A DNA stretch of 36,670 bases from Candidatus Woesearchaeota archaeon UBA119 (GTDB taxonomy: Archaea; Nanobdellota; Nanobdellia; Woesearchaeales; UBA119): contig DAWM01000022.1 of NCBI GenBank assembly GCA_002505945.1, positions 19,032 through 55,701 of the forward strand. The letters run 5' to 3'. Position numbers and translations under genes: made by a program. This document shows positions 8,343-36,670 of this stretch, piece after piece; within the stretch, counting starts at the first letter, position 1; every line of letters begins with the position of its first letter. The notes beneath the pieces are model-generated. The model saw nothing but the letters and a program-made list of their open reading frames with translations, did no database searches and was not told the DNA's origin.

Positions 8343-8408
8343 TATTTGTATCTTGAGATTAGTTGGAATGTTAGGATTAGCAAACAACTTTAAAAGAGGT
8401 GCGTCGGA

Positions 8409-16944: not shown

Positions 16945-18381
16945 TTATATAAGGTTAAGTTCTCCGAGCATCTGCAAAGCCTGCATATCATCAATAATCT
17001 TATCCGCTTTAAGTTGATTGATTAAACTCCCTGCCTGCTTAACATTAATCTGTTTCTGCTTTATCAGCCTATCTATCGCCCAGGTTACCATCCTTTGATT
17101 AGGATTATCCTTGTAATTCTCTTTTAATGCCTCTGCAATCAATTGAAGGTTTGTTTTGCCTTTCAAACTTTCTATATATATCTGTTTTTCCAATCTTTCT
17201 ATAGGATTATCATTGTTCTTTTTCTTTTCTGTTGCTTCTTTTTTATCCTTCTTCTTTTCTTCAAGAATATCAGAGATATCTAGCCACTCCTCCTTCTTTT
17301 CAATGTACTTGTCTAAATCAAGATGCTTGAATTCCTCTTTATCTCTTTCTTCTTTTGGCTTAACGGCCGATTTCTCAAACTCGGTGAATGGTTCCAAGTT
17401 GATCCTTGGTTTTATATTGCTTGGATTCGTTGATCTCCGAGGCTTACTTGCTGTGGTAAACCGGTGCTTATCTCTGTTCTGGGAGCCCTCGCTTGGAAAA
17501 GGGAACCGCAGATTTAAGTCCGGCTGGATATTAGATGTTTGCTCTTCTGAATTCTTCCTTTTCTTGAGCAAACTTATTAGGATTATTATGGCAGTTAAAT
17601 TCAATCCTATGGAAAACGTGAGAACGATTATTAAAGGCAGATTCTTATTAATGAATTCCATAGCTTGAGGAAACGACAGGGTTGACCTTTCCTTATTATC
17701 ATCCTGATTCTCTTCATTATTCTCAGGCTTATCAACCCCCAAATAATATGTTATTCTCTTTGTTTCTTTCCCATCGTATTCATTATAGCATTCTACAATG
17801 AAACTTGTTTTTCCCTTTTTCTGCGAAATCTCCATAACTTGAATCCTGTGGTTAGTGTCGTTAAGATTCTGCATAGTGAATGTCCCTTCCTCCGCTTTGA
17901 TATTGCAGATAGACTTTTTCGTAGTCCTTACATTGATATAGTCAGATAATGCGATAGAATCCAAATCTGAAGGAGACACATGAGTTATAAGAAAAGGGAT
18001 GTTCCCTTGTGCGTCTTCTTCCTCTTTGTTCTCCTCGGTAGAATTGTCCTCAAAAGATATATTAATCTCGAAGGCCTTAAAGTCTTCCTGGTTTTCTAAT
18101 CCATCACACCAGCCATTTATGACTTGGTTTACTGGTTCAACCTGATATTCAAAGACTTTGTTTTCGGAGTCAACTGCAGACAAAGTTTTTATTTCTCCAT
18201 TTTCTATATAACACTTAGCTGGGGTATCCGTTTCTATAATAAGTATATCTTGGTCATCTTCTTGCGTCAGATTTACATTTGTGGTAAGAGAGTATGCAAT
18301 AGGCAAAACAAGCAAAACAACACCTAATACAAGAATCCATCTTAACTTTGAGCAGAGTTCCGGATTTTTGACCCAAACCAC
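16945..18381 (-). CDS. orphan single-pass membrane protein with a duplicated Cys-containing ectodomain and a K/E-rich cytoplasmic tail
   Basis: N-terminal hydrophobic segment (LRWILVLGVVLLVLPIAYS). Two similar ~110-aa extracytoplasmic segments follow (..TPAKCYIENGE.. and ..KKSICNIKAEEG.., each with a second Cys). Then comes a TM helix (LPLIIVLTFSIGLNLTAIIILISLL), a basic/acidic low-complexity tail, and a helical C-terminal domain. The GTG start at 18381 is uncertain. Confidence 0.6.
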   Translation of the reverse strand: MVWVKNPELCSKLRWILVLGVVLLVLPIAYSLTTNVNLTQEDDQDILIIETDTPAKCYIENGEIKTLSAVDSENKVFEYQVEPVNQVINGWCDGLENQEDFKAFEINISFEDNSTEENKEEEDAQGNIPFLITHVSPSDLDSIALSDYINVRTTKKSICNIKAEEGTFTMQNLNDTNHRIQVMEISQKKGKTSFIVECYNEYDGKETKRITYYLGVDKPENNEENQDDNKERSTLSFPQAMEFINKNLPLIIVLTFSIGLNLTAIIILISLLKKRKNSEEQTSNIQPDLNLRFPFPSEGSQNRDKHRFTTASKPRRSTNPSNIKPRINLEPFTEFEKSAVKPKEERDKEEFKHLDLDKYIEKKEEWLDISDILEEKKKDKKEATEKKKNNDNPIERLEKQIYIESLKGKTNLQLIAEALKENYKDNPNQRMVTWAIDRLIKQKQINVKQAGSLINQLKADKIIDDMQALQMLGELNLI

Positions 18382-18512: not shown

Positions 18513-19331
18513 ATGCTGACATATGAACCACATCCTGTTTTATTCTCCCTCTTTGGATTTGAAATAAGGTATTATGGACTCTTTTACCTGATTGGCTTCT
18601 TAGTTGTGTTTTTTATGTATAATCGCCTGTCTAAGAGATTAAAAGGCTTAAATCATTCAAGAGACAAAGCCTTTGAGATGCTTTTTTGGGGCTTGGTGGG
18701 GGGAATATTCTTTGCCCGCCTCTTTTATGTTTTCTTTTATGACTTCTCCTATTACTCAACTCATATTCTTGAATCCTTCTTAATCTGGAAAGGTGGATTA
18801 TCATTTCATGGTGGGCTGGTTGGTGCTGTGTTTTTTACATATCTTTTCTGTAAGCATAACTCTATCGATTTTCTTGAGGTTGCAGATATTGTGGTAATCC
18901 CTGCTGCTTTGGCACTTGCCTTAGGAAGACTAGGTAATTTTCTCAATGGGGAATTATATGGCAGAGTAACAAATGTGCCCTGGGCTGTCCGTTTCACGAC
19001 TGATCCTCTATTAAAACCAAGACATCCTTCTCAGATATATGAATCTTTCAAGAATGTTTTAATTTTCCTTATCCTTTATCTGTTCTTCAGGCTTAAGTAT
19101 ATAAGAATGAAAGTAAGGGAAAGAAGAGGCTTAATCTTAATATACTTTATTTTTCTTTATGGCCTGTTTCGCTTCTTTGTAGAGTTCTTTAGAGCTCCTG
19201 ATCCGCAATTGGGTTTACTCTGGCTTGGTTTATCAATGGGTCAGTGGTTTTCTTTGTTTATGGTTATTTCAGCATTCTTGCTCTACTTCTTTAAGAGATA
19301 CAAGCAAAACTCTGCTCGGATAACCAATTGA
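18513..19331 (+). CDS. lgt: prolipoprotein diacylglyceryl transferase (bacterial-type Lgt)
   Basis: All the Lgt signature blocks I know from E. coli Lgt are present and colinear: YGLFYLIGF, GGLSFHGGLVG (HGGL motif), LGRLGNFLNGELYGR (E. coli GRLGNFINGELWGR), and PRHPSQIYES (E. coli RHPSQLYE). The protein is a 7-TM-like polytopic protein of 272 aa. Confidence 0.9.
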   Translation: MLTYEPHPVLFSLFGFEIRYYGLFYLIGFLVVFFMYNRLSKRLKGLNHSRDKAFEMLFWGLVGGIFFARLFYVFFYDFSYYSTHILESFLIWKGGLSFHGGLVGAVFFTYLFCKHNSIDFLEVADIVVIPAALALALGRLGNFLNGELYGRVTNVPWAVRFTTDPLLKPRHPSQIYESFKNVLIFLILYLFFRLKYIRMKVRERRGLILIYFIFLYGLFRFFVEFFRAPDPQLGLLWLGLSMGQWFSLFMVISAFLLYFFKRYKQNSARITN

Positions 19332-20545: not shown

Positions 20546-20582
20546 TGGCATGCTTAGAGTCTTCATTTATTGGGGTGAACAT

Positions 20583-23471: not shown

Positions 23472-24135
23472 AAATCAAGATTTTTTTGTGGTGCTTCCTG
23501 CCTATAATGAGGAAGGAGCAATAGAAAAAACACTTAAGGATGTTCTTAAGTATTCTAAGCCAGAAAATGTAATTGTAGTAGATGATGGCTCACAGGATGA
23601 AACATTTAAGGAAGCTAGAAGATGCAATGTGAGAGTTCTGAGGCATGTGGTTAATTTAGGCAAAGGCGCAGCTTTAAAGACCGGCTGTGATTATGCTATT
23701 AAGAGACATGCCAATAAGATAGTTTTGATGGATAGCGATGGCCAGCATGACCCATCCTATATCCCAAAATTTGTTTCTTTGTTGGATAAGTATGATGTTG
23801 TTCTTGGAGCAAGAAAAAGAACTAAGGACATGCCTCACACAGCTAAATTCGGTAATCTCTTCTTTGATGTCTTTGTAAAGTTCTTTCTTGGTAAAGAGAT
23901 AATAGATACTCAAGGGGGTTTTCGTGCTTTCAGGGCTGAGAAATATCCTTTGTTGAAATGGAAGTCTTCGGATTACACAGTTGAGACAGAGATGCTTGTT
24001 CACATAGTCGAGCAGAATCTTAGCTATACTCAAATCCCAATAAAAACAATATACACTGACAACTATAAAGGTACTACTGTGCTTGATGGATTTAAGATAG
24101 TTTTTAATATATTGAAGTTCAGGTTATTTGGTTAG
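23461..24135 (+). CDS. GT2 glycosyltransferase, dolichyl-phosphate hexose synthase-like (DPM1/AglD/AglJ-type)
   Basis: FFVVLPAYNEEGAIEKTL, VVDDGSQDET, LGKGAALKTG, and LMDSDGQHDP (DxD). The ATG overlaps the aglB 3' end by 11 nt. Confidence 0.85.
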   Translation: MAAENQDFFVVLPAYNEEGAIEKTLKDVLKYSKPENVIVVDDGSQDETFKEARRCNVRVLRHVVNLGKGAALKTGCDYAIKRHANKIVLMDSDGQHDPSYIPKFVSLLDKYDVVLGARKRTKDMPHTAKFGNLFFDVFVKFFLGKEIIDTQGGFRAFRAEKYPLLKWKSSDYTVETEMLVHIVEQNLSYTQIPIKTIYTDNYKGTTVLDGFKIVFNILKFRLFG

Positions 24136-24168
24136 TATGCTTATTAAGAAGAAAGAGGTGCAGATAAG

Positions 24169-24552
24169 ATGATTGGAATTCAGATATTTGCGGTGTTCTT
24201 TTCTTTGTTTATGGCTTATATAGCTTATATTAATTTCAGGAAAAAGATAATCTCTGGTTTGGCTTTTGTTTTGTGGGAAGCATTGTGGGTTGGCTTCATA
24301 GTAGTGGTTTTGTTCCCTTCTATTATGGATCCTATCCTTGAAGTGTTGCATTTCTATAGGCTTTTTGATATGCTTACAGTAGCTGCTTTTGCCTTTCTTG
24401 TCGTATTTTCCTTTTATAATTTCATTCTGGCTTCCCGAAACAACAAGAAAATAGAAAAGCTTGTAAGAAGAATAGCAATAGGAGGAGAGCAAGACCCCAG
24501 CAGCTCTTCTACAAGGGAAAAAGATAAAAAGGCTAGTAAGAAAAAAAATTAA
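24169..24552 (+). CDS. small polytopic membrane protein (DUF2304-like GT2 partner)
   Basis: Three to four TM helices (IQIFAVFFSLFMAYIAYINF, LAFVLWEALWVGFIVVVLF, LFDMLTVAAFAFLVVFSFYNFIL) and a basic tail. AGAGGTG lies 8 nt before the ATG. This size, topology and position after a GT2 gene are what I recall for DUF2304. The family call is from memory only. Confidence 0.5.
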   Translation: MIGIQIFAVFFSLFMAYIAYINFRKKIISGLAFVLWEALWVGFIVVVLFPSIMDPILEVLHFYRLFDMLTVAAFAFLVVFSFYNFILASRNNKKIEKLVRRIAIGGEQDPSSSSTREKDKKASKKKN

Positions 24553-25535
24553 CTCCTATCAATATAGTTTACTCTCCATAAATCGCACGTTCTACATAGT
24601 TTATGGCTGTTATGGTTTTTTCTGAAATCCTTAAATTTCTTGCTGTCCCATATCTCTTTAAGGTTCTTGTCCTTTAGGTTGTCCATCTTTAAAGCAGGGA
24701 GAAGGCAGCAGGGAGTAACATCGCCTTCCACATTTACATATGCGTAGTTGAAAAGCCTTAAACATCTCTTGCCGAACATACCCAGAGTATGCTTTGCCAA
24801 TGGGTAGGCAGTTCTTACAAAGCCCTTTCCAACCCCGTATTGAATCATATCCGCCTGCAGCCCAATCTTGTCTGCGTGAGAAAATATTTTCTTGACCATC
24901 TCCTTTTCTTCCTTTAAGGAAGGCCTAGGCATACCTGGAGAGAATTCCTGCAATACCCTGGAAAGATTTAATCGTTCTGCGCCAACGCTTTTGGCAAAAT
25001 CACATATTGCTATTAGGTTGGAAACAGGTTTTTCTAAGATGGATTGGATTACGATAGCAGGCCTCTTATTCATCTTGGACAAAGCCCTTATGTTATCAAG
25101 TGTTTTCTTATTCATATGACCCCATTCATTCTCCTCATCAACAGAGTCTACAGAAAAAGTAATGCTGTCAATCCCTGCTTTAACAAGGTCATCCCTCATC
25201 TTCTGATTCAACAACAAGCCATTCGTGGTAAGCCTTACCTTTTTGTTCTTGAACTTACCAAATCGGACCATCTCAGCTAAATCCTTATGGGTTGTAGGCT
25301 CACCCCAACCGGTTAAGATAATCTCTTTTACTCCCCCCAGCTTATTAACAATCTTCTTGAATAAAGAAAGATGCATCTCTTTGTATTTGACAGGAAGCTT
25401 CTTCCTCGGGCACATCTTGCAGTCTAGGTTGCAAAGGTTAGTAATCTCCAGCTGAACTGTTTCAGGGACCTTCGGCTGAATACAAAAGATTCTGCCAATA
25501 TATTCCTTGAAAGGATTCATGTTTATATCAACCAT
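24549..25535 (-). CDS. radical SAM enzyme with a C-terminal SPASM/twitch-like cysteine domain
   Basis: CNLDCKMC (C35-x3-C39-x2-C42), TGWGEPT (GGE SAM-binding motif), and a TIM-barrel-length core. The C-terminus carries C-x12-G-x4-C-C ... C-x2-C (CLRLFNYAYVNVEGDVTPCC...CRTC), matching the first half plus the CxxC of the SPASM consensus. The ATG overlaps the upstream GT2 stop by 13 nt. Confidence 0.85.
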   Translation of the reverse strand: MVDINMNPFKEYIGRIFCIQPKVPETVQLEITNLCNLDCKMCPRKKLPVKYKEMHLSLFKKIVNKLGGVKEIILTGWGEPTTHKDLAEMVRFGKFKNKKVRLTTNGLLLNQKMRDDLVKAGIDSITFSVDSVDEENEWGHMNKKTLDNIRALSKMNKRPAIVIQSILEKPVSNLIAICDFAKSVGAERLNLSRVLQEFSPGMPRPSLKEEKEMVKKIFSHADKIGLQADMIQYGVGKGFVRTAYPLAKHTLGMFGKRCLRLFNYAYVNVEGDVTPCCLLPALKMDNLKDKNLKEIWDSKKFKDFRKNHNSHKLCRTCDLWRVNYIDRS

Positions 25536-26545
25536 TTAATTATTTTCCAATGGAGGTTAAGTAACGGGCTGAGAAACCAATCAATGCCCTTGCTCTTAAT
25601 CATCTCAAACTTCAAGTGACCTACAAAGTTCTTCATGAACTCTTTGTCCTCAATTCTTCTTTCCTTCTGTATCTTCCTTCTTTGCTCTTTAATCTCTTTC
25701 TTGTACTTTTTAAACTCTGAGTAACTCTTAAGCTTCTTAGGCAGCCATCCAGAAACCAGAGCAAAATAAAGCGTGGCGAGCTCTATTAAAAGGGAAGCAG
25801 GGGCAATCAGCCATAATGTCTTGTTAGAATAATACTTCTTAATCAAGAACCTTCTATGGAATTCTAAATCATAGAACTTGTCAGGATTCCTCTTGAAATC
25901 ATATTTGTGGTAGGCGATTGCATTCGGATTGAAAAGAAGCTTGTAGCCATATATCCTTATTCTGAAGCACAAATCAACATCCGAGTGATACATAGGAATG
26001 TTCTCATCAAAGAGCCCCACTTCATCCAGGATGCTCCTTTTTATCATGCAGATGCCACCGAAATCAGTCTCCTCAACCTTCAGTTTCTTGTCTTTTTCAT
26101 TCAAATGTTTGGGCCATCCGAAACCCATATAATTGAATATCCCCCCAGCATAGTTGATATGCTTTGGCTTATTATAGAAGAGTAGTTTAGCAGAGCAGGC
26201 CGCTGCTTTCCTCTTTTCAAGTAGCTCATACATGTTTTTTATGCAGTCCTTATCAATCTTCATATCATCGTTGAAGAATGCTATATACTTGGCTTTTGAA
26301 GCCCTTATACCAACATTTACTGCAGGCCCAAACCCAATGTTCTTTTTGGTGTTTATTATCCGAAGCTTACTGTATCTCTTTTTTGGAAATCTCTCCTTCA
26401 TAAACTCCTCAGAGCCGTCTGTTGAGCCATTTATTATCAGGATTACTTCCGTATCCTCAAAGGACTGTTCTAGAAGAGAAGAAATACATTCCTCAAGATA
26501 CTGCTTTCCGTTCCAAGAAACCACAATCGCTGAAACCTTAGCCAT
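25523..26545 (-). CDS. GT2 glycosyltransferase with a C-terminal membrane segment
   Basis: VSAIVVSWNGKQYLEECISSL, INGSTDGS, NIGFGPAVNVG, and FFNDDMKID (DxD-like). A TM helix is near the C-terminus (LWLIAPASLLIELATLYFALVSGWL). A TATA-like gtattttaaaaag lies ~50 nt upstream on the reverse strand. Confidence 0.85.
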   Translation of the reverse strand: MAKVSAIVVSWNGKQYLEECISSLLEQSFEDTEVILIINGSTDGSEEFMKERFPKKRYSKLRIINTKKNIGFGPAVNVGIRASKAKYIAFFNDDMKIDKDCIKNMYELLEKRKAAACSAKLLFYNKPKHINYAGGIFNYMGFGWPKHLNEKDKKLKVEETDFGGICMIKRSILDEVGLFDENIPMYHSDVDLCFRIRIYGYKLLFNPNAIAYHKYDFKRNPDKFYDLEFHRRFLIKKYYSNKTLWLIAPASLLIELATLYFALVSGWLPKKLKSYSEFKKYKKEIKEQRRKIQKERRIEDKEFMKNFVGHLKFEMIKSKGIDWFLSPLLNLHWKIIKWLI

Positions 26546-26653: not shown

Positions 26654-26920
26654 TCATATCAAGCCAATGTTCTCCATAGGCACGCAGCAGAATAAGTCTC
26701 CGCAGCCCATACCTTTGTATGCTTTTCCCTGCTCGGAATCGCATTCCTCTCTTGTCTCAACACACTTACCTTTGTACTGATTTTTGCAAGGATTCTCCAC
26801 CTCATTTATAATGTTCTCTCTGAATACCTGGAATAAAAGGTATATCACGGTAATCAAAACAACAATAATCAAAACCCATTCAACTGCATTAAACATAAAG
26901 CTTGATTTCTTGTTTTTCAT
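26654..26920 (-). CDS. small Cys-rich membrane-anchored or pilin-like protein, paralog B (88 aa)
   Basis: MKNKKSS + hydrophobic helix (AVEWVLIIVVLITVIYLLF), then PCKNQYKGKCVETREECDSEQGKAYKGMGCGDLFCC (C-x7-C-x6-C-x12-C-x4-CC). GAGGAG lies 8 nt upstream of the ATG, and the gene starts 14 nt after paralog A. Confidence 0.65.
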   Translation of the reverse strand: MKNKKSSFMFNAVEWVLIIVVLITVIYLLFQVFRENIINEVENPCKNQYKGKCVETREECDSEQGKAYKGMGCGDLFCCVPMENIGLI

Positions 26921-26934
26921 TTTATAATCTCCTC

Positions 26935-27195
26935 TTATTTTTTAACCATGCTGGAGGCGTTGAAACAGCAAAACTTATCACAGCCCATCCCCCTTCTAGT
27001 AATCATACCTTTTCCTGCACATTCATCTTCTCTTTCAACGCATTTTCCTCCATTATAGTTGTTACATTCAATATCAAACCTGTCGCTTCCTTGGTTGAAA
27101 AGATTGATTGCGATAAGCACAACTACAACAAGCGCGATCACGGCTAAAACCCATCCCACTCCGGATTGTATTATCTGTGATTTCTTATTTTTCAT
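26935..27195 (-). CDS. small Cys-rich membrane-anchored or pilin-like protein, paralog A (86 aa from the ATG at 27195)
   Basis: MKNKKSQ + hydrophobic helix (GVGWVLAVIALVVVVLIAINLF), then ECNNYNGGKCVEREDECAGKGMITRRGMGCDKFCC (C-x7-C-x6-C-x12-C-x3-CC). The track start is 27219. I prefer the ATG at 27195 because it reproduces the MKNKKS N-terminus of paralog B and overlaps the giant-ORF stop (AACAATGAAAAATAA), suggesting translational coupling. The start remains uncertain. Confidence 0.6.
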   Translation of the reverse strand: MKNKKSQIIQSGVGWVLAVIALVVVVLIAINLFNQGSDRFDIECNNYNGGKCVEREDECAGKGMITRRGMGCDKFCCFNASSMVKK

Positions 27196-30100
27196 TGTTG
27201 AAAAGTTCATAGTCTGCATTTTTTAAATAAGTTATATCTCCCACATAGCTCTCTAACATAGCATTTAGTTTATCTTCAACAACATCTTTGGTAGAAGCAA
27301 CCATAAACAATACACTCTCTCCACCATATTGGATCTTTTTCATATAAAAATTCTTAAAAGACCAGGCAATAAGTCCATAAGCAGGTATTGTATCCTTGTT
27401 GCCACAGAAACCATTTTGGATTGTTTCACTGAATTCCATCTCATCCTGTTTAATTGATATTGGAATTTCGCATTTCCCCTGGAACTCTTCTTTAAATTCG
27501 GCAATCCCCTCTAGACAGAAACCTTCAGATTGGTAGAAATTAATGCAAGGTGAAATCACTGGGTTTTCAACAGGTTCCGAAATAAAGATTAAGTATGTCT
27601 TGTCGTTATTTTCCGTGAATAAAGGATACTCATTCTCCTCCACAAAAAGGGTTATATCTCCAGTTCTCTCAAGTTTAATTTTAGTTTCCTTTACATTTAC
27701 ATTCTTCAACATCTCTTGAAACTTTAAATTAACCATTTTATTCTTGTTGAGGTCTTGTTTTAGTCGCATGTCAAATATGTTGAGCATTAGACGAGTTTGT
27801 AAACTATTCCAATTTGTTATAACCCAAGTATAAGGAGCAATTATAATCTGTCCTGTTTCTTTTACCAGCTCCCCTGCCTCATCTACAAATGCCTTAAATG
27901 TATTGATATCCCTTTTTCTGAAATCCATCGTGAGTACTCTCTTTCCTACCTCGTCCTTGGAAACTTTGAATAATACATTACCATCATCGTCAATGTTCAG
28001 GATTTGTTCTGATGCTTTTACTCCCTGGACGAGCTCTATAATATAGGTTTTCTCTAAGAACTCCAAAACTATCTCTTCTGTTCCAAAATCAATTTCCCGC
28101 CTCTCGCCCTCAATATCCTCAATAACTATTTTATTTATTGTATACTTAGTAGGTGTTTTTTCTTCTTGATTCCTCAGATATAACCCTAAAGCCCATCCAG
28201 GATCATCAATAGGATTCGTATATTCAAGACTTTTTATAGCATTGAAGACCTGTTCTGTCTTAAGTATTTCGCCTCCGCCGTTTGCGAGGATGTCTTTTAT
28301 CTTTGATATAACATCTCCAACTGCCATGCACTTAGGCTCATCAATATTTGCAAACCAAGGGATATCGCAGCTGCCCTCCATTGAGTGAGTAGTCTCGCTT
28401 ACAAAGAGAGAGTCTGGGTCGTACTCATAACATTCATTATCCTTGTCATAATAATACTTTGAAAACTTCAACTTTGTTTCTCCTGAGAACACAGCCTCCC
28501 TATTGCCGTCCGCTAGCTTTATCTTTGACTCTAATTTATCTGAGAATTGTGTGAAATATTTATCGTTGGATTCCAATTCAAAAATTTCTTCTCCATTTCT
28601 GATGATAAGTTGTTCATCCGAGGGGATAGGGAATTTTACCAATGTGAAATTATATGTATCTTCATCTTCTATGTAATTTATACATTCATTATCATTGATT
28701 CTTTTATTAATATCAGAAAGCGTTTCAGAGCAACCCTCATAAGCAAGCTCATTATTTCCTTTCAAATCAAAATGTTCTTTAATTCCGTCGTGCCCGCCTT
28801 CGCCTTTTTCTAATACAGTTAGAATTACATCCTCATCGCCTTGAGAACAATTCCTCACAAGAACCAGCAAGCTCCCTGTTTCACTAACCTCCCCATCTAA
28901 TATATTTACAATATTGTCTGATGTTTGGAGTTCATACAGATTCTCTCCTGAAGAATACATAAGTCCCCCTCCTTGAGAGACAACCCTAAAGCTTCCCTTT
29001 GGAAATGCTTCGGATGCATAACCTACAAACGCTTTGATGTTTTTATCGTTAAAAAACTTATCAAGTGCGTCAAGTACTGCAGTGTCAATTTCCTTTTGAA
29101 TCTCCTTACTGCATTCCTCAAGTTCCTTATTTGTTTCAATTGTTAACCCATTATATTCATCCTTCTTGAACTCAATCTCTTGGTCATTATTATAAACTCC
29201 ACCAATAGCCCAATCTTCTTTAATATAACATTCGCTTGCAGAGTTCAAGTTATGGTTTCTTATAACTGTTGGTATGTTACCTGTAAGCACAACTTCTCCT
29301 TCAACATTAATTCCTGTGCTTCCCCTTGCTAACTCATAAATCTCTCCGTTAAGATAATATCTCAATACTGCCTTTTTGTTTAAGAATACAATCTTAAGCT
29401 GCCCTAACTGCCCTCTTTCATCGAACAAGTTTTCATGTCCTGAGAAATATTGTGATTTGATGCTATTCAAATCAAGGATAATTCGTGTAGCATAATTTTC
29501 GTTATTGTTTTCAGCATCTTTTATATCAGTAATAAGTTGAGCGAAACTATCCTTCAGTTCTTGATTTATAGTTCCTACTTGATCAAACTCCATTATCAGT
29601 TTGTTTCCTTCTATCTTTAGGACAACATACCCTGAAGCAGGTATAGAAGCAATAGGATTTTGTCCATTGTTAAATTCAATGTTATACATGCTTTCTTTCA
29701 GGTCTATTCTTACCTGTTGCTGCGTATCTGTTTTTCTTCTTAGGAAAATTTTGTCGGAAGTGGGATAATCTATTATAACAGAATTGATTTCTTCAGAGCT
29801 AATGTAAAGCTCTTGGTTTATCTCTTCTCCGCCAACGAACTTAACTCCAAACTCCAGTTTATTATTTGGATATGCGGATTCAAAGTAATCCACTGCCTTA
29901 AAAAATTTCTGAATACCCATGGTTATTTCTCCCCCATTATCCAAAAGACTTTTTATCTTGCTTATTGCATCTCCTACCTCAGAACACTTTGGTTTTATAG
30001 GTGAAAGAGAAGCATCATCAGCGGTATAACATGTGTTTCCTACCATGTCTAAGGATGTTGGAGTTATATAAATGTTAGAATTGCCTTGAGCATAGCATCC

Positions 30101-33100
30101 TTCTTGTTGGAAATATTTTGAGAAAAGCAAGACGTTTCCAGATGAAAGAATACTAGACTCTTCCCCTTGAGTTACCCAAGGAGTCCTCATCTTCTTGGAA
30201 TATTGCGGATAAAATCTATAATCAGAATCAACCACGAATTGTTCATTTCCTTCCATAAGGGAAATGCTTTCTCCATTTTCTCTACCTGGCCATTTAACTA
30301 TGGTGTAATCGGAATTCCAAAGATTATCTTCAACACAGCTTATTCTGGCATTAATAGCATCCAGCGTAGGAGAACACTTTTCGTGGTAATAGATTGGCGT
30401 ATATTCTGTGGTTATAATGGAATCTATGTGGTTCTTTAGTTTAGTGTATTCATCTTCATTTGCATCTATCAAATCAACTATTACCTCTCCGTGTTGATTT
30501 TGATAGGAGCACTCCCTTAAAAATAAGAGGAAGTATTCGCCTGCCGGTTTTTCAATAATTCTCACATTATTATTGAAGTCTTTCAAGATAATTGTTTCCT
30601 GTCCCGTTATCCCATAGTTGAAGTCGCCATATCTTATTGAGAATCCTTTCATACTGTAATCAAAGTTAATAGTAAACTTAGGAGTATCATCATCTATTTT
30701 AATAATTAAGGCTTTCCAATTATTATTGAAGAACTCGGAGATAGATTCTCCAAGCTCCTCGGTTTTATCTTCTCCTCCAATCTTCTCACAATTATCCATA
30801 TGGCTTTCGATTACCCAGAATGGTTTTTCCCTTTTGATCCTAGAGTTATCATAGCTTATAATCTTCCATTTCTGAAGCTTGTCATAGCACTCTATATCCG
30901 TTCCATCTGATTTCTTCTCTGTTCTTGTTTCAAAATTGGATATGATTATGTTGTTGTTCTTACTCAAAACATAATTTTTTTCAGATGCTAAATCCAGTCC
31001 AACTTTCATTATATGGGTTGTACCAGAGGACAAGTCCACCATGTTGTTTTTAAATGTGATAGTAAGATGCCCAAGATTCCCATTAAAGTAAACTTCATTA
31101 ACCTTGTCGTGATCAATGATTATGCTCATAACGTCATCAGAGTAATCTGATAGCTTTCCATTTAAATCGTTTACAAAACTGCTGAAAGAATTCCTTATTT
31201 CATAAAACTCAGACTCCTCTCCCATAAAGTTCATCGTAATGGTGTCTCCTTCTCGTTTTAGGACCATTTTCTCTGAATTAGCGAAGTCTCCAATGCTTGC
31301 AGGGTTTGTTATTTGGATTCGATAAAAAGTATTTGTTGAGGATAAATAGAAGATGGTTTCTTCATCGCCAAGTTCTATTACCTTCCTTTCATACTCGCCA
31401 TTCTCTTTTTGATATATTATTCTTACATGCTTTATGCCTGATGTTTTAACTCCGGGGTTTGTTTGTGCACCGCCGTCATTTCCTTTAAAGAACACAGAAA
31501 ACTTCGGTTGGTCTTCATCTTCAGCTTTGTTGTATTCAATATTGTCTATGGCTTCGAAGAAATCGTTTGTATTTATCTCAGCCGATCCTCCATTCTCAAT
31601 TATATCTTTTATCGTAGTTATTGTTTCGCTTCCTTCAGGTTCTTTTTCATCCCAATACTCGCAAGCAGACCCGCTAGTTGCTCTCAAATCAGTGATATAG
31701 AGATAATTATCATTGCCCTTTAACACTCCACCTGTTTCATCAATATATCCCTTTGACATCTTAATTCTCTTGTTTCCTTCAATAGACAGTTCTAATAAGG
31801 AATAGTAACTTTCAGAATCTTGTGCTTTCATGATTATTTTGCCAATAGGTTTTTCTAGTTTGTCGCTGTATTGAGGGAAATATCTGTTGGCAGAAGTCAG
31901 TTTGAACTCATTCCAATAAGGCTGGATACTTAGTTTTTCTGTTTTCTCAAACTCAAGGTTTATTAAGGCATAATCTTTTTCTCTGTTTAATAGGTCATTG
32001 GCGCAGGTTATCCCTTTATTAATATTTGTCAAGCTCTCAGAGCAGCGTTCATATTGTACCACTCCATCCCCACTATCAAAATACTTTCTGAGCTTTGAAT
32101 TCTCTGCCTTATCAGAAGCAACCACATCCAGAATAACATTATTGCTGTCATATGAGCAGTTTCTGACAAGCTTGAGTATTCCTCCTTTTTGCATATATCC
32201 TTCCTTTATATTGACATTCTGCCCCGGTGTCTCAATATCAAACTTATCTCCTTCCTTGCTTAAATAAATTAGAGATTCACCGCTTTTCTCAAAAACACCG
32301 CCTAAATAACCATCTTCATTGAAAAATATGCCTGCCTTTCTATTCTTATCAGCAAAGAAATTATCAATTTCGCCAATAAAGGATTCAACATCTTGTTCTT
32401 TAACGAGTCCACTGCATTCAGGCAGGGAGTATTTATCAATCTGAATTCCATAAAGTGTTGTCGTTGTCTTTTTGTCATTAATGTCCTCAAGTCCTGTGTC
32501 TGTAACCTGTCCGCCTCCTAATTTCCAATTGATGGGAGTATAGCAGTATTTGGAGTTCTTTTCTGAAAGGTCAAAGTTTCCTATAATCAATGGATTGTTT
32601 GTAAGGGTGCGAGTTTCATCGGCATGTATGTAGTAAGAATCCCTACTGGCAATCACACCGCCACTGTTAAGATATTGGTATTTGAGAGTTGCCTTCTGAT
32701 TAGAAAATTCAATCATCAGCGTTTCATCTTCAAACAATCCTTTGTCTTCTTTAAAGTACTCGTTTGCGATATTATCGAGTGTAAGTGAGAAGAATGTCGG
32801 CTCGTCTTCATGGCTGTAAGCGAGGTTGTTAAGTTTAGTTGTAAAATCCTTAAATCCTTGCTTTAGTCTTTCTTCATTTATTACCTGCTCTTCTTTCCCT
32901 TTCTCGAATCGAATTTCAAACCTCCAAAAAATTCTTTCTTCTGCCTTCTTCTTTATATGCACCTTGGATGATGGGACGATGCCTGTGCTGATCTCGTCTT
33001 CTCCATAAATCTCAATTTTCAGAGTGTTAAGAAAATTAGCTTTTTCACCGTTTTCTAACACATATTCTTCAGTGTCTCCTGCTATATTAGGATAAAAGAT

Positions 33101-36100
33101 AATTGGTTCTAAATAAAGCCGATAACTTTTTTCTTCGCCGTTAGAGTAACCTACATCCAAGACATGAGACCAAGGCTTTTTTATGAAATTGAGAGCTTTA
33201 AAGAAATACTCTGCGCGCTCAATTGTCGCTTCATTAACAAAATTGTCGTGCGCTAAAACCGTCTTAATCTTTTTAATCGCAAGCCCAACCTCATCGCATT
33301 TTGGTTTTATGGGTGAAAGGGAAGCATCATCAGGGGTATAACATGTGTCTCCTACCATATTTATCTCGGTTGAACCCACAAAAATAAGATCCTCATCTTT
33401 CTTGTAACAATAGTATTCTGTGGAGTAATTATATTTTGTAAAGAGCAGTTCCTTTTCTTCAGTCCCTGAGAAAAGATTGTCTGCATTTCCCTTTATTTCT
33501 AATGGTCTGCTAAACTCTTTGGAATATTGCGGATAATACCTATCATCAGAATTGACTACAAATTGTTTATTCCCTTTCATGAGAGAAACGCTTTCTCCCT
33601 CTTTTTTACTAGGCCATTTAACTATGGTGTAATCTTCAGCGCCTAAATATTCATCAACACAGTCTATTCTTGTGTTTATGTTGGATATAGTATCTAAACA
33701 GGTTTCATGATAAAAGACCTGGTTGGCCCTTCCTTCGCTTTCCCTTATAGAAATAATCTTGTCGTTTAGGCTGTTATACTCCTTATTCCCTTCTGCTTTT
33801 CCAACAAAATCAACAACTACGCTCTCTTTTGGATAGGAGCAGTTCCTAAGAAAAATAAGGAATCCTCTCTTTCCTGCTCCTTTAAGAATGATATCCTTTA
33901 CTCCGTTGGTCTCAATTGTTTCTCCTTTTAATAAGAACGTATCAGGATTATTCCCATTATCAAATGTTGTGAGTTCTAATCCAGGAGTTTCTTCTGTGAG
34001 GTTAATAACCAGTACTTTCCAATTGTCTTCTGCGAAAAAGGACTCTACCTTATTCACAATCTCATCAATCATTGTCTCTTTTTGAACCTCAGTACAGCTC
34101 TTTATATTAGTTGGACCAGAATGGATTGCGGTTGCCCTTGGTTTATTTGCCCCATCCATTACCCAGTTTCCTTTATTTGTTTTCCTATAGCACCTTTTGT
34201 TATCATCGTCATCGTTCTCAATCATATAATTGCGCAGAAGAGTATGATAATTAAAATCAAAACCATTAGCTAGCTTCTCTCCATAATTACTCTGAGCTAT
34301 GAAATTAGTGCCTGTTGAATATTCCTTGCTATAAAAAAGCAGCTTAGCTTCCTTTTCCAGGAATTTGATTCTATATTCCTCAAGATTACCAAAGAAGTAG
34401 TTGTCAACTACCTCATTATAGTTCAGCGTGATGTTCATGGCTTCACCGGAATCTTCATTTTCCTCGATTGTACTGTTTAGAGCTTCTATGAAATTATAAA
34501 AGCCATCAATGTATTCACATTCAGCGATTGAGATTGATTTGATCGTTTTCACGGCATCTTCTCTGTTCTGATATTTATCTTCCGTAATGACTCTCCAGCT
34601 ATCTATCATCTCATTACAGGGTTTGTTATGGGTTAAGGAAATGATGTAGTTTCTTAGCCCGAAAATCTCTTTTAAGTTATATTCTGAAGTGGATTCTACA
34701 CCAATCTTTTTTAGATAAATCTTATTCTCTTCTCCTTTAAGTGTAATTTTACCGTTGGCTACAAAGATATTAAAGATATTTAATATTCCTTTAAAGCATT
34801 CCTTATTTATCAGGTTATAATTGAGCACAATATCCATTGGTTTATCATTATTAACTTCATTTTCAATCTTGCTTTTTAATCCATTTACAAACTCGTCAAA
34901 GTAAACCTTTGCAATATCCCAAGCAGTTTCCTCTCCCTTAAAATTTATTACGAGCACGGGCTCTTCATTAATCTGTTTTAGTTCTAATGCAACTTTATTA
35001 GAATAAAGGATATCGATGGGGTCTCTATTTGTGATCTCTATCCCTTTGTAATCTTCTATTAAGAACCTAATTATTGTTCTTTGCGTAGGTTCAACAATCC
35101 TTGCTATCACTTCGGTTTCCCCTGAATTAAGAGGGTCTACATTTTCCTCGTTGAGTATGGCCACTTTTTTTATTGGGTATGGTGTTGATTCTTCAGAAGT
35201 GATGAACTTAGCCACAAGTTCAGAGTCCTTTCCATCATATTCTAAGGTTTCAAGCGCATTAAGGAATTCATCAGTGTTAATAACTCGTCTGCCTTTTCCT
35301 TCCAAGGCTTCCTTGATTAGAGGTATTGCATTCCCGACATCCTCGCATTTCTTATTATAGATAGAACTTAGTTCTCCTTTGAAAGAATTGCAACTGCCTT
35401 CAAGACTTTCTTCAGTTTTACTAAGGTATATATTGGAATCATCCTTTTGATAGCATTCTTCAACATCTTTAAGATAGTATCTTGAGAATTTTATTTTTTC
35501 GTTTTTTCCTGCCTCAATGAACCCCTTATCTCCATTTATTTTTATATCTTCATCCATTTGCATTTGCTTGCTGAATTGAGGATAATATCTCAAAGAAGAG
35601 GTTAGATTAAAGTGTTTTTGTTCCTCATTAATCCTCGCTTTCTCATCTTCCCCAATTCCAAACTTAACTATAATATAATCGTTATCCTCTAATTCTATTT
35701 TTTCATTCACACAATCAATGTATTCGTTCAATTTCTCCAAGCTACCGGAGCACATCTCTTTGTGGAATACATTAGGCGCAGCGTTTTTTGCTTCTCTTAT
35801 ATCTTCTAATTTTGTTTTTAGATTATTGAATTCAGCTTCATCTTCATCCTCCCCGATGAAGTCAACTATTGCTGCTCCTGAGGGTTTTGAGCAGTTTCTC
35901 AGCAGCACCAAATAGCTTTGTCCTTTAGGTCTCTCTATAATACCCGACTCAGAACTATCTTTTAATACCAAGCTTTCCTGATTGATCTCAACATTAATTT
36001 CCTTACTCATAATATAATTACCTAATGTTGTGAACTCCAAATCAGGGGCATTCTTATCCAAAAATATAACCAAAGCCTTCGTTTTCTTATTGTTAAAGAA

Positions 36101-36670
36101 TTCATTCATTTCTGTCTCTATTTCTTCAATATTTGCTTCAGTTACCATATCCACACATTTGTGAAGACTTCTCTCCACAGCATCAGAGATTGCTTCTTTA
36201 TTAGGGCTACTATCATATGCTACAACCCATTTGTCTGTTACTTTTCTATAACAAGACCCATATGTTGCGCTTTTTTCTACAAGATAGTTCTTAAGTACTG
36301 AATTGCAATTAAAAAGATATGGTTCTTCTGTTCTATCAGCAATTAGCAGGATTGAAACACCTATCTCTTCTGATAACACAACCTTATCATTTTCTTTATT
36401 TACCAATTCTGCTTTGCCACTTGAAAACTTTATTTCATACCTATCAAGGTTTCCATAGAAATATTCTTGTTTAATCTTATTATAGTTTAGTTTTATTTGT
36501 TTTCCAGGAGCATTTGCTTTATCTTTGTTGATTCTGGTTATCTCTTCTTTCAGGTCGTCTATGAATCTTTCAAATCCTTTTTTAGCGTAGTACTCAGGAA
36601 TCTTCAGGCAGTCTTGGTGCGGCTCGCATTGAACATCTTCTTGCGCTCCCTCAAATCTAGAACACATGTA
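27185..36670 (-). CDS. giant modular Cys-bearing protein (at least 3,160 aa; N-terminus outside the window), putative secreted or surface protein of unknown family
   Basis: Uninterrupted reading frame from the right window edge to the TAA at 27187-27185. The first in-frame ATG is only 3 nt from the edge, so the ORF is 5'-truncated. It has a strongly periodic ~550-aa module structure with conserved motifs and Cys positions (see repeat features). There is no TM helix in the visible part. Confidence 0.85.
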   Translation of the reverse strand, partial: YMCSRFEGAQEDVQCEPHQDCLKIPEYYAKKGFERFIDDLKEEITRINKDKANAPGKQIKLNYNKIKQEYFYGNLDRYEIKFSSGKAELVNKENDKVVLSEEIGVSILLIADRTEEPYLFNCNSVLKNYLVEKSATYGSCYRKVTDKWVVAYDSSPNKEAISDAVERSLHKCVDMVTEANIEEIETEMNEFFNNKKTKALVIFLDKNAPDLEFTTLGNYIMSKEINVEINQESLVLKDSSESGIIERPKGQSYLVLLRNCSKPSGAAIVDFIGEDEDEAEFNNLKTKLEDIREAKNAAPNVFHKEMCSGSLEKLNEYIDCVNEKIELEDNDYIIVKFGIGEDEKARINEEQKHFNLTSSLRYYPQFSKQMQMDEDIKINGDKGFIEAGKNEKIKFSRYYLKDVEECYQKDDSNIYLSKTEESLEGSCNSFKGELSSIYNKKCEDVGNAIPLIKEALEGKGRRVINTDEFLNALETLEYDGKDSELVAKFITSEESTPYPIKKVAILNEENVDPLNSGETEVIARIVEPTQRTIIRFLIEDYKGIEITNRDPIDILYSNKVALELKQINEEPVLVINFKGEETAWDIAKVYFDEFVNGLKSKIENEVNNDKPMDIVLNYNLINKECFKGILNIFNIFVANGKITLKGEENKIYLKKIGVESTSEYNLKEIFGLRNYIISLTHNKPCNEMIDSWRVITEDKYQNREDAVKTIKSISIAECEYIDGFYNFIEALNSTIEENEDSGEAMNITLNYNEVVDNYFFGNLEEYRIKFLEKEAKLLFYSKEYSTGTNFIAQSNYGEKLANGFDFNYHTLLRNYMIENDDDDNKRCYRKTNKGNWVMDGANKPRATAIHSGPTNIKSCTEVQKETMIDEIVNKVESFFAEDNWKVLVINLTEETPGLELTTFDNGNNPDTFLLKGETIETNGVKDIILKGAGKRGFLIFLRNCSYPKESVVVDFVGKAEGNKEYNSLNDKIISIRESEGRANQVFYHETCLDTISNINTRIDCVDEYLGAEDYTIVKWPSKKEGESVSLMKGNKQFVVNSDDRYYPQYSKEFSRPLEIKGNADNLFSGTEEKELLFTKYNYSTEYYCYKKDEDLIFVGSTEINMVGDTCYTPDDASLSPIKPKCDEVGLAIKKIKTVLAHDNFVNEATIERAEYFFKALNFIKKPWSHVLDVGYSNGEEKSYRLYLEPIIFYPNIAGDTEEYVLENGEKANFLNTLKIEIYGEDEISTGIVPSSKVHIKKKAEERIFWRFEIRFEKGKEEQVINEERLKQGFKDFTTKLNNLAYSHEDEPTFFSLTLDNIANEYFKEDKGLFEDETLMIEFSNQKATLKYQYLNSGGVIASRDSYYIHADETRTLTNNPLIIGNFDLSEKNSKYCYTPINWKLGGGQVTDTGLEDINDKKTTTTLYGIQIDKYSLPECSGLVKEQDVESFIGEIDNFFADKNRKAGIFFNEDGYLGGVFEKSGESLIYLSKEGDKFDIETPGQNVNIKEGYMQKGGILKLVRNCSYDSNNVILDVVASDKAENSKLRKYFDSGDGVVQYERCSESLTNINKGITCANDLLNREKDYALINLEFEKTEKLSIQPYWNEFKLTSANRYFPQYSDKLEKPIGKIIMKAQDSESYYSLLELSIEGNKRIKMSKGYIDETGGVLKGNDNYLYITDLRATSGSACEYWDEKEPEGSETITTIKDIIENGGSAEINTNDFFEAIDNIEYNKAEDEDQPKFSVFFKGNDGGAQTNPGVKTSGIKHVRIIYQKENGEYERKVIELGDEETIFYLSSTNTFYRIQITNPASIGDFANSEKMVLKREGDTITMNFMGEESEFYEIRNSFSSFVNDLNGKLSDYSDDVMSIIIDHDKVNEVYFNGNLGHLTITFKNNMVDLSSGTTHIMKVGLDLASEKNYVLSKNNNIIISNFETRTEKKSDGTDIECYDKLQKWKIISYDNSRIKREKPFWVIESHMDNCEKIGGEDKTEELGESISEFFNNNWKALIIKIDDDTPKFTINFDYSMKGFSIRYGDFNYGITGQETIILKDFNNNVRIIEKPAGEYFLLFLRECSYQNQHGEVIVDLIDANEDEYTKLKNHIDSIITTEYTPIYYHEKCSPTLDAINARISCVEDNLWNSDYTIVKWPGRENGESISLMEGNEQFVVDSDYRFYPQYSKKMRTPWVTQGEESSILSSGNVLLFSKYFQQEGCYAQGNSNIYITPTSLDMVGNTCYTADDASLSPIKPKCSEVGDAISKIKSLLDNGGEITMGIQKFFKAVDYFESAYPNNKLEFGVKFVGGEEINQELYISSEEINSVIIDYPTSDKIFLRRKTDTQQQVRIDLKESMYNIEFNNGQNPIASIPASGYVVLKIEGNKLIMEFDQVGTINQELKDSFAQLITDIKDAENNNENYATRIILDLNSIKSQYFSGHENLFDERGQLGQLKIVFLNKKAVLRYYLNGEIYELARGSTGINVEGEVVLTGNIPTVIRNHNLNSASECYIKEDWAIGGVYNNDQEIEFKKDEYNGLTIETNKELEECSKEIQKEIDTAVLDALDKFFNDKNIKAFVGYASEAFPKGSFRVVSQGGGLMYSSGENLYELQTSDNIVNILDGEVSETGSLLVLVRNCSQGDEDVILTVLEKGEGGHDGIKEHFDLKGNNELAYEGCSETLSDINKRINDNECINYIEDEDTYNFTLVKFPIPSDEQLIIRNGEEIFELESNDKYFTQFSDKLESKIKLADGNREAVFSGETKLKFSKYYYDKDNECYEYDPDSLFVSETTHSMEGSCDIPWFANIDEPKCMAVGDVISKIKDILANGGGEILKTEQVFNAIKSLEYTNPIDDPGWALGLYLRNQEEKTPTKYTINKIVIEDIEGERREIDFGTEEIVLEFLEKTYIIELVQGVKASEQILNIDDDGNVLFKVSKDEVGKRVLTMDFRKRDINTFKAFVDEAGELVKETGQIIIAPYTWVITNWNSLQTRLMLNIFDMRLKQDLNKNKMVNLKFQEMLKNVNVKETKIKLERTGDITLFVEENEYPLFTENNDKTYLIFISEPVENPVISPCINFYQSEGFCLEGIAEFKEEFQGKCEIPISIKQDEMEFSETIQNGFCGNKDTIPAYGLIAWSFKNFYMKKIQYGGESVLFMVASTKDVVEDKLNAMLESYVGDITYLKNADYELFNNEK
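27188..27889 (-). repeat. giant-ORF C-terminal 234-aa region (aa 2927-3160), possibly a degenerate partial module
   Basis: It begins with a module-start-like FVDEAGELVKE..MVNLKFQEM and then diverges. It contains 5 Cys (SPCINFYQSEGFC..GKC..GFCGN), no TM helix and no anchor motif that I recognise. Confidence 0.4.
27890..29536 (-). repeat. giant-ORF module 5 (aa 2378-2926, subtype B)
   Basis: LITDI..ILDLNSIKSQYFSG, SECYIKEDWAIGG, LEECSK..LDKFFNDKN, LVRNCS (aa 2605), YEGCSETLSDINKRI, KYFTQFSDKLESKI, GSCDIPW..PKCMAVGDVISKIK, LTMDFRKRD. Confidence 0.7.
29537..31177 (-). repeat. giant-ORF module 4 (aa 1831-2377, subtype A, closest to module 2)
   Basis: FVNDL..IIDHDKVNEVYFNGNL, IECYDKLQKW, FLRECS (aa 2051), YHEKCSPT..ISC, DYTIVKWPGRENGESISLMEGNEQFVV..RFYPQYSK, VGNTCYTADDASLSPIKPKCSEVGDAISKIK. 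Confidence 0.7.
31178..32845 (-). repeat. giant-ORF module 3 (aa 1275-1830, subtype B)
   Basis: FTTKL..TLDNIANEYF, KYCYTPINWKLGGG, LPECSG..IDNFFADKN, LVRNCS (aa 1502), YERCSESLTNINKGITC, RYFPQYSDKLEKPI, ITMNFMGEE. It has only 6 of the 8 module Cys. Confidence 0.7.
32846..34492 (-). repeat. giant-ORF module 2 (aa 726-1274, subtype A)
   Basis: FIEAL..TLNYNEVVDNYFFGNL, KRCYRKTNKGNW, FLRNCS (aa 941), YHETCLDT..IDC, DYTIVKWPSKKEGESVSLMKGNKQFVV..RYYPQYSK, VGDTCYTPDDASLSPIKPKCDEVGLAIKKIK. Confidence 0.7.
34493..34891 (-). repeat. giant-ORF truncated module (aa 593-725; first ~130 aa of a module only)
   Basis: FVNGL..VLNYNLINKECFKGIL..LRNYIISLTHNKPCNEMIDSW reproduces the module N-terminus. It then joins directly to the start of module 2 (FIEAL at aa 726). 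Confidence 0.6.
34892..36565 (-). repeat. giant-ORF module 1 (aa 35-592, subtype A)
   Basis: Landmarks: FIDDL..KLNYNKIKQEYFYGNL, GSCYRKVTDKW, LLRNCS (aa 257), HKEMCSGSL..IDC, RYYPQFSK, GSCNS..KKCEDVGNAIPLIK, LVINFKGEE. Confidence 0.7.

Follow-up and report, generated by a model that had tools for sequence, protein, structure and literature searches.

A giant protein of tandem 550-residue modules, encoded beside pilin-like genes in a woesearchaeon, is a candidate surface fiber

Bacteria carry giant repetitive adhesins of the RTX/Bap type. In archaea of the DPANN group, host recognition and attachment are largely unknown. Giant adhesin-like proteins of the dockerin type have been described in Omnitrophota (bioRxiv 10.1101/2023.11.21.568195), nanohaloarchaea encode the giant DPANN surface proteins named 'SPEARE', among them SVXNc_0300 at 9,409 aa (amino acids; PMC10266531), and fast-evolving surface proteins are known in Nanoarchaeota (PMC6142677). 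A further point of comparison is offered by archaeal proteins with class III signals, which have Gly, Ala or Ser at position -1, a charged residue at -2 and a cleavage site in front of the H-domain, Gln at +1 being typical of EppA substrates (PMC4371748). Here we describe a giant gene at one end of a 36,670-nt stretch of DNA from Candidatus Woesearchaeota archaeon UBA119 (contig DAWM01000022.1, positions 19,032 to 55,701; hereafter the window). Its product is an array of ~550-aa modules without a known family, followed downstream by two small pilin-like genes, and is probably an extracellular fiber, either anchored or associated with a pilus, that acts as an adhesin or spacer and is specific to a lineage of Woesearchaeota within DPANN.

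The gene lies on the reverse strand as a single uninterrupted open reading frame (ORF) of 3,161 codons and one terminal stop, and the frame remains open to the window edge, which cuts its 5' end (Table 1). An initial annotation, made from the letters alone, had described such a truncated frame and held the gene to be longer than 9.5 kb; translation bears out both points. The first residue in the window aligns to residue 746 of the ortholog at a locus of a related genome (L017), and therefore ~745 N-terminal residues lie upstream of the window edge, giving an estimated full-length protein of ~3,900 aa and ~440 kDa. On one Logan contig the gene product is called at 3,708 aa and is still truncated. 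From N- to C-terminus the architecture comprises a short hydrophobic helix (in two orthologs only), about six full and two partial ~550-aa alpha/beta modules, and a 233-aa C-terminal domain. The protein is acidic (pI 4.69, ~4.7) and rich in E, I, K and N, with 49 Cys in the window portion; His makes up 0.8 % of its residues, and neither CxxC-type nor His-rich metal-binding motifs were found in it. As the initial annotation had also stated, the window portion contains no transmembrane-like segment (maximum KD19 hydropathy 1.26). Scans of the window for tRNAs and Rfam families gave no match.

That the gene runs off the window, and that its L017 ortholog is interrupted, might suggest an assembly artifact or a decaying pseudogene. 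The interruption, however, is only a 100-N scaffold gap (L017 8196-8295), with frame 2 open over nt 1664-8195 and another frame open from the gap to the stop; the L017 gene appears fragmented for this reason alone. The same gap has led public gene calls to miss ~6.5 kb of the ORF, and the deposited metagenome-assembled genome (MAG) annotates only a 951-aa fragment. An exact-match look-up with the 94-aa ORF that overlaps the end of the giant gene retrieved six Logan contigs, each from a different sequencing run; in these independent assemblies the gene is collinear and 88-99 % identical, and its frame runs through 9.5-10 kb without a stop or frameshift. Contigs L001-L003 hold 9.2-10 kb of it; their protein matches that of the window at 88 % identity, and the alignment of 3,161 aa needs just 8 gap positions. 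In L004, 1,349 aa can be compared, at 99.4 % identity. Since the same collinear gene recurs in six independent assemblies, it is not an artifact of one of them, and repeat collapse is implausible because the closest DNA repeats inside the gene reach only 76-79 % identity over 110-170 nt. The dN/dS ratio, 0.39 overall and 0.1-0.5 in each block of 300 codons, is that of a coding sequence under constraint. GC content (0.355) and GC content at third codon positions (GC3, 0.337) are near those of other window genes, slightly below the low end of the range of the four compared (GC 0.368-0.415, GC3 0.361-0.420). The real giant gene of the initial annotation is thereby borne out, and an artifact or pseudogene is effectively refuted.

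A hidden Markov model (HMM) built from the five full copies delimits in the ORF five complete modules of ~550 aa and a partial copy of 131 aa, within 1-2 residues of the boundaries that had been set by hand. The repeats are equally evident in self-BLAST with 200-aa tiles, which gave off-diagonal matches at shifts of ~550, 690, 1105, 1240, 1660, 1790 and 2345 aa (21-47 % identity, E-values down to 1e-48). The alignments also contain the landmark motifs listed earlier, namely CY..W, R-N-C-S, E.CS..L..IN.RI.C, RYYPQ(F/Y)SK, G.(S/T)C...KC..VG..I.KIK and F.G.EE. R-N-C-S was rejected as a strictly conserved glycosylation sequon; two modules have Glu or Asp in place of its Asn, so that the conserved element is R-x-C-S. 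Paralogous modules share 21-35 % identity with one another, and the division into two subtypes made in the initial annotation is weakly supported, with identities of 27-33 % within groups versus 21-26 % between them. No internal sequence sub-repeats are detectable within the module. In front of module m1 lies a degenerate spacer of ~150 aa, which matches the module profile weakly. The last stretch of the protein had been taken for a partial module copy of 234 aa; it is instead a separate domain of 233 aa with four Cys, a module assignment being rejected by HMM (E = 0.06) and hhalign (probability 0.1 %), and it shares 50 % identity with the corresponding domain of the L017 ortholog.

Searches for relatives of the module were almost empty. 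Pfam gave nothing above cut-off for the 3,161 aa (best 22.1 bits against a cut-off of 25, for an unrelated phage family), and phmmer and profile searches of the PDB with the module gave nothing (E of at least 0.19). An exhaustive HMMER search with the module profile over 1.84 billion representative proteins found only P0001 (557 bits) and P0002 (134 bits, E = 8e-34), both from related Woesearchaeota; it detected no sequence relationship to SPEARE-type proteins. A word-indexed search of 5.8 billion proteins with the whole protein or the module alignment gave no match, for which we blame its candidate filter, the relatives being present in that set. No relative appeared in a genome-contig scan with module 1 or, for the module, in a viral-contig scan, and metagenome-contig scans with the 600 aa at the upstream end of L001 or with the exact 33-nt word at the window edge gave no match. 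Two matches in 1.84 billion proteins, together with the lack of further copies on contigs, confine the family to a very narrow clade. Known adhesin and surface repeat families (Ig-like, cadherin, PKD, beta-helix, dockerin, S-layer) gave no significant match in Pfam, the PDB or Foldseek.

An AlphaFold2 model of module m6, built from seven sequences, has a mean pLDDT of 71 and a pTM of 0.54, with residues 1-435 mostly at 70-93, and depicts a mixed alpha/beta unit of about four 'helix plus antiparallel sheet' sub-domains. Foldseek comparison of this medium-confidence model with two databases, the PDB and BFVD, gave no match above a TM-score of 0.13. The matches are mainly to DnaN/PCNA-type clamps, over ~430-470 columns and three consecutive 'helix packed on an antiparallel sheet' sub-domains, with E-values of 4.7e-4 (PDB) and 2e-6 (BFVD), TM-scores of 0.06-0.13, a root-mean-square deviation (rmsd) of 18-25 Å, probabilities of at most 0.72 and sequence identities of 7-13 %. 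Homology to the clamps was rejected on TM-score. The likeness is one of loose topology at most and is no evidence of homology or DNA binding; the module, unlike a sliding clamp, whose domains each consist of two beta-alpha-beta-beta-beta motifs and form a ring, is part of a giant protein without ring architecture and shows no clamp sequence signal. The absence of a known family noted in the initial annotation therefore holds across Pfam, the PDB, and AlphaFold2 with Foldseek. Judged by these comparisons the 550-aa module is a new, unannotated protein family, and what is new here is this building block together with its specific operon.

The two relatives are positional orthologs of the giant gene. 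All three loci share the same downstream order: two small ORFs, a GT2 glycosyltransferase, a radical SAM/SPASM protein, DUF2304, a second GT2, AglB, TrmB and Lgt. P0002, from loci L015/L016, is a complete protein of 915 aa and consists of an N-terminal hydrophobic helix, one module (61-651) and a 264-aa tail; its transmembrane-like leader, MKPIIAELIIVLIVVAALSVIIL, reaches a KD19 hydropathy of 3.2. P0001 corresponds to the 3' part of an ortholog with several modules in MAG GCA_964580745.1 (L017), whose N-terminus, MEFQKSTLLGLILVVVAVILVVAAAS / MEFQKSTLLGLILVVVAVILVVAAASPSYRQSMLSFLGF, is followed by an extra module, m0, and then by a degenerate spacer of ~150 aa. Both complete N-termini thus have a hydrophobic helix of ~20 residues followed by R-(E/Q)-x3-(S/T)-(I/L/F)-(F/L)-G, a motif that recurs in a smaller neighboring protein. 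L017 has one module, a fused m3/m4, where the window has m3 and m4; given this fusion and the single module of L015, module number varies between relatives from 1 to six or seven.

The initial annotation had counted eight conserved Cys per module and six in one copy, and the alignment indeed has eight Cys columns, of which six are filled in the module at residues 1275-1830 (m4). All 13 modules compared retain C1-C4. The other four disappear in pairs: C6 and C8 together in all three m4 orthologs, and C5 and C7 together in module m0 of L017 (L17_m0), while P0002 has lost all of C5-C8. Such paired loss of C5/C7 and of C6/C8 is the pattern expected of disulfide partners, and with the N-terminal hydrophobic anchors of the orthologs it lends support to the disulfides and the extracytoplasmic location that had been proposed. 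Paired metal ligands would be lost in the same way, which could be read in favor of a cytoplasmic, non-exported protein whose conserved Cys bind metals and whose function is unrelated to the surface; the window portion lacks a transmembrane segment, and its best Foldseek matches are nominally DNA sliding clamps. We consider such a protein highly improbable, as in the orthologs the first module immediately follows a hydrophobic anchor, the flanking operon genes code without exception for exported or membrane proteins, the clamp matches have TM-scores of at most 0.13 and an rmsd above 18 Å, and the protein is poor in His and free of metal-binding motifs.

The giant protein has diverged more than the genes around it. 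Against L017, the giant protein and its modules share 44-53 % identity, the small ORFs 52-62 % and the other neighbors 74-93 %; against L015, the values are 21-25 % for the modules, 41-43 % for the small ORFs and 63-77 % for the other neighbors. By this measure the giant protein is evolving much faster than its neighbors. Orthologous modules are 52-53 % identical in L017 and 78-83 % in L001; since paralogous modules share only 21-35 %, amplification predates the split of the window and L017 lineages. A more recent event is recorded in the comparison with L001-L003, which differ from the window at 687 positions in gene nt 1-5460 (12.6 %) and at 28 positions in nt 5461-9486 (0.7 %), and which are 100 % identical downstream of the gene through the small ORFs. 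The last dense mismatch, at gene nt 5501, coincides with the boundary between m4 and m5 at nt 5490. This mosaic points to homologous exchange of an N-terminal module block between strains.

Among species representatives in GTDB, every one of the nearest eRF1 sequences belongs to a Woesearchaeota/Nanoarchaeota MAG (92 %, 80 %, then at most 67 % identity), which supports the small-genome archaeon of the initial annotation. Several MAGs grouped with Woesearchaeota/Nanoarchaeota by eRF1 (L018, L020-L022 and other 'binchicken' MAGs) are nevertheless titled 'uncultured Methanosarcinales archaeon'. One of them is the genome with the closest ortholog (92 % eRF1 identity), and the titles look like placeholder taxonomy.

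The window giant protein contains 10 N-x-S/T sequons where 30 ± 5 are expected (z ~-4, a ~3-fold depletion), four of the ten being the conserved R-N-C-S motif. The depletion is reproduced in L001 and L017 (z -2.7 to -4.3), and a D-x-S/T control is neutral. It would fit selection against stray glycosylation in a protein passing AglB, an argument to which we give little weight as the depletion is only partly specific, the [ST]xN control also being low (z = -2.5). The three putative lipoproteins encoded at the far end of the window are likewise sequon-poor (0, 1 and 1, against 1.9-3.0 expected), and the cytoplasmic proteins of the window are not depleted; exported proteins of this AglB-encoding organism may avoid sequons.

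A structural envelope component, such as an S-layer-like tether, a sheath or a spacer that shapes the envelope without being a specific adhesin, would share the evidence for export and disulfides, and would suit a gene that adjoins N-glycosylation and lipoprotein biogenesis genes at a position conserved in three genomes. Variation from 1 to at least 6 modules among close relatives is unexpected for an essential structural protein, however, as is divergence two to three times faster than that of the neighbors. Archaeal S-layer proteins are typically N-glycosylated, unlike this sequon-depleted protein, which also has no match to the S-layer families in Pfam. We regard such a component as decidedly unlikely.

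Downstream of the giant gene, and in the same direction, lie the two small ORFs, a radical SAM/SPASM gene and, between them, a GT2 gene whose position is syntenic in L015 and L017; facing them is a convergent block of N-glycosylation genes (Table 1). The window also encodes eRF1, the RFC small subunit, TrmB, a P-type ATPase, an ABC-2 transporter and Lgt. The surface-biogenesis setting that the initial annotation had recognized from aglB, GT2 genes and lgt is confirmed, with two GT2s, the radical SAM/SPASM protein, DUF2304, AglB/STT3, TrmB and Lgt; what it had missed is the pilin-like nature of the two small downstream ORFs. As no subfamily reaches cut-off, assignment of the radical SAM/SPASM gene to a named peptide maturase was dropped.

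Table 1. Features of the window, with positions on the 36,670-nt stretch
Feature	Position	Strand	Details
Giant ORF	27185..36670	-	Stop at 27185-27187; 5' end cut by window edge; from translation and ORF list
Residues 1-34, tail of degenerate ~150-aa spacer/partial module before m1	36569..36670	-	3 Cys (MCSRF..QCEPHQDC); from alignment with upstream extensions of L001 and L017
Module m1, residues 35-592, full	34895..36568	-	8 Cys; HMM envelope, 686 bits
Short partial module, residues 593-725	34496..34894	-	HMM envelope 593-723; profile positions 1-133 only; 33 bits; E = 1e-17 with 13-module profile
Module m3, residues 726-1274, full	32849..34495	-	8 Cys; HMM
Module m4, residues 1275-1830, full	31181..32848	-	6 Cys, C6 and C8 both missing; HMM, Cys alignment
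Module m5, residues 1831-2377, full	29540..31180	-	8 Cys; HMM
Module m6, residues 2378-2928, full	27887..29539	-	8 Cys; HMM; copy used for the AlphaFold2 model
C-terminal domain, residues 2929-3161	27188..27886	-	4 Cys; no module copy; HMM, hhalign
Allelic recombination junction	31170..31211	-	Window versus L001-L003; coincides with m4/m5 boundary
94-aa ORF	26935..27219	-	Overlaps end of giant gene by 35 nt; class III-like leader (KKS↓QIIQSGVGW...), H-domain, 6-Cys mini-domain
88-aa ORF, paralog of 94-aa ORF	26654..26920	-	Leader MKNKKS↓S, H-domain, 6-Cys mini-domain
GT2 glycosyltransferase	25523..26545	-	Co-directional with giant gene
Radical SAM/SPASM protein	24549..25535	-	Co-directional with giant gene
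DUF2304	24169-24552	+	Convergent N-glycosylation gene (block 20550..24552)
GT2, dolichyl-phosphate-sugar synthase/AglJ type	23461-24135	+	Convergent N-glycosylation gene
AglB/STT3	20550-23471	+	Convergent N-glycosylation gene
Lgt homolog	18513-19331		PF01790, 243 bits
478-aa ORF	16945-18381	-	N-terminal hydrophobic segment; no family match
Lipobox gene lp1	3548-4531	+	Lipobox ISAC
Lipobox gene lp2	4582-5520	+	Lipobox LTAC
Lipobox gene lp3	5592-6575	+	Lipobox LTGC

The small ORFs form two paralogous subfamilies, each kept in all three genomes, and stand two genes upstream of the radical SAM/SPASM gene, whose product might modify them in the manner of a SPASM maturase with Cys-rich peptide substrates; the 94-aa ORF is conserved at the same position in L015 and L017. 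Their leaders (↓ marks the putative cleavage site) read KKS↓QIIQSGVGWVLAVIALVVVV and KKS↓SFMFNAVEWVLIIVVL in the window and KKA↓Q, KRG↓Q and KKS↓Q in orthologs. Together with four or five genes upstream of P0002 in L015, they share a short basic stretch ending in K/R-[G/A/S], then usually Gln, and an H-domain of ~20 residues (for example KKS↓QI, KKA↓QI, KRG↓QS, KKG↓QL, RKG↓QA, KKG↓SS and KKG↓VL). On a purely rule-based assessment, both small downstream ORFs of the window are therefore candidate class III substrates. Their C-terminal 6-Cys mini-domain follows the pattern C-x(7-8)-C-x6-C-x(11-12)-GMGC-x(3-4)-CC. Profile matches stay below threshold, with E = 0.14 for TadE and E = 0.0015 for a pilin-like conjugal transfer protein, and a database search with the 94-aa ORF found only itself.

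Upstream of P0002, at L015 2967-6951 (+), lies a run of six consecutive genes (38, 277, 298, 186, 403 and 60 aa), all with N-terminal hydrophobic segments. Four of the six have KKG↓ or RKG↓ class III-like leaders, three have 6-8 Cys, and none has a Pfam match. The 403-aa and 60-aa genes have orthologs in L017 (27 % and 46 % identity), and the counterpart region of the window falls beyond its edge.

Combining these lines of evidence, we propose the following picture for an anchored or pilus-associated fiber. The N-terminal helix would target the giant protein to Sec and would either hold it in the membrane as an anchor or, should it be cleaved like a class III signal, let it join a pilus-like assembly. 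Each module would be stabilized by up to four disulfides, and the modules, strung one after another, could project the distal end tens of nanometers from the cell. The giant gene would be co-transcribed with those for the two small pilin-like 6-Cys proteins, and its product would most likely mediate contact with a host cell or surface, as an adhesin or a spacer. The array arose by tandem amplification of a single-module ancestor, a state still seen in the 915-aa ortholog, and continues to diversify through gain and loss of modules and recombination at their boundaries. The adhesin or host-interaction role suggested by the initial annotation remains an inference, which the pilin-like operon, the rapid divergence and the allelic recombination make more plausible.

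Several points weigh against this picture. Export is judged from orthologs that are only 44 % and ~23 % identical, the N-terminus of the window strain lying outside the window, and the charge distribution around the N-terminal helix of the orthologs is not decisive. The paired Cys losses would, as said, equally fit metal ligands. As to a pilus, the small ORFs have no significant pilin profile, and Pfam and NCBIfam scans of the giant N-termini of the orthologs at E up to 5 gave no pilin family; no gene for a prepilin peptidase, a PilB/FlaI ATPase or a PilC/FlaJ platform was found among the Pfam-annotated genes of the 36.7-kb window, the 18.5-kb L015 locus or the L017 locus; and the leader of P0002, M-K-P↓IIAEL, fails the class III rule, with Pro instead of Gly, Ala or Ser at -1.

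In a sharper version of the same explanation, not exclusive of it, the giant protein would itself be a mega-pilin: its class III signal would be cleaved in front of the H-domain by a PibD/EppA-type prepilin peptidase, and the protein would be built into, or would cap, a type IV pilus-like filament of the small 6-Cys proteins, in parallel to modular pilins and the bindosome subunits of Sulfolobus. The L017 N-terminus formally fits the rule (MEFQ-K-S↓TLLGLILVVV, with a charged -2 and Ser at -1), the small ORFs of L017 use the same K-S↓ site, and in L015 seven or eight consecutive co-directional genes have KKG↓, RKG↓, KKA↓ or KRG↓ leaders. Large non-pilin proteins, the bindosome subunits, do use the class III pathway (PMC4371748), and large adhesins occur in archaeal type IV pilus (T4P) loci (PMC4858521). 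Besides the Pro of P0002 and the absence of pilin profiles and assembly genes, however, the giant N-termini resemble those of the 186-aa and 75-aa neighbors (a transmembrane segment followed by R-E/Q-x3-[ST]-[ILF]-[FL]-G), not the KKG↓Q class. We therefore hold this version to be possible but unlikely.

A bolder elaboration, which we rate as quite unlikely, would make the locus an undescribed attachment appendage of DPANN archaea. In it a peptidase-cleaved giant pilin would dock by its H-domain onto a filament of 6-Cys mini-pilins, perhaps cross-linked by the radical SAM/SPASM protein; module count (1 to at least 6) would tune reach, recombination at module boundaries would retarget host specificity, and the module would represent a new extracellular fold class.

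Further genes in the window encode predicted exported proteins. The three tandem genes lp1-lp3 have bacterial-type lipoboxes and 7-8 Cys each, with 25-27 % identity between lp1 and lp2 and between lp2 and lp3, no BLASTP match between lp1 and lp3, and no Pfam or NCBIfam match. With the clear Lgt homolog of the same window, they suggest a bacterial-style lipoprotein pathway in a DPANN archaeon. The 478-aa ORF has counterparts of 371-374 aa on JGI contigs from the same population and of 474 aa in L017, as would befit an exported protein of variable length.

The wider significance of the locus is bounded by the very narrow clade in which it occurs, by the standing that giant orphan surface proteins have already gained as a theme of DPANN and CPR genomics, and by a function that we infer. 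Within these bounds it supplies a concrete, testable candidate for attachment in a group from which we found no cultured member in the literature on Woesearchaeota. It offers a clear path of evolution from one module to many, disulfide pairs suggested by covariation, exchange of allelic cassettes at a module boundary, and conserved pilin-like partner genes. With its 550-aa module, the set of units from which microbial surface fibers are known to be built gains a new member.

Among described systems, the SPEARE proteins are similar in general design: in both cases a small-genome DPANN archaeon encodes one acidic protein of very large size, which begins with a segment for export or anchoring and has an ectodomain presumed to contact the host, and both are organism-specific and variable between relatives. 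SPEARE proteins, however, are mosaics of Ig-like/fibronectin-like, coiled coil and VirB4/TraG-like ATPase domains with an adjacent VirB4-like ATPase gene (PMC10266531), whereas the woesearchaeal protein is a near-homogeneous array of one unannotated module, with no Pfam domain, no ATPase neighbor and a pilin-like/N-glycosylation context. Proteins with class III signals, the adhesins of T4P loci and the Sulfolobus bindosome (PMC4371748, PMC4858521) resemble it in that a large extracellular protein is encoded among small genes with [K/R]-[G/A/S]↓ leaders and H-domains, and one ortholog N-terminus fits their signal. The giant protein differs from archaeal T4P-locus proteins in having no pilin or adhesin profile (DUF2341/PilY-type), no nearby assembly genes and ~8-20 times the size of a typical pilin, and P0002 breaks the -1 rule.

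With the giant repeat adhesins of bacteria the protein shares tandem repeats that set its length, a tendency of assemblies to break in or near the gene, and a presumed attachment role in ultrasmall or host-dependent cells. The bacterial repeats are short (~90-110 aa) and of known folds (Ig-like, dockerin/EF-hand, thrombospondin type 3), often stabilized by Ca. The woesearchaeal array, in contrast, is built from a mixed alpha/beta unit of ~550 aa with about four sub-domains, probably stabilized by disulfides, whose copies have diverged to 21-35 % identity.

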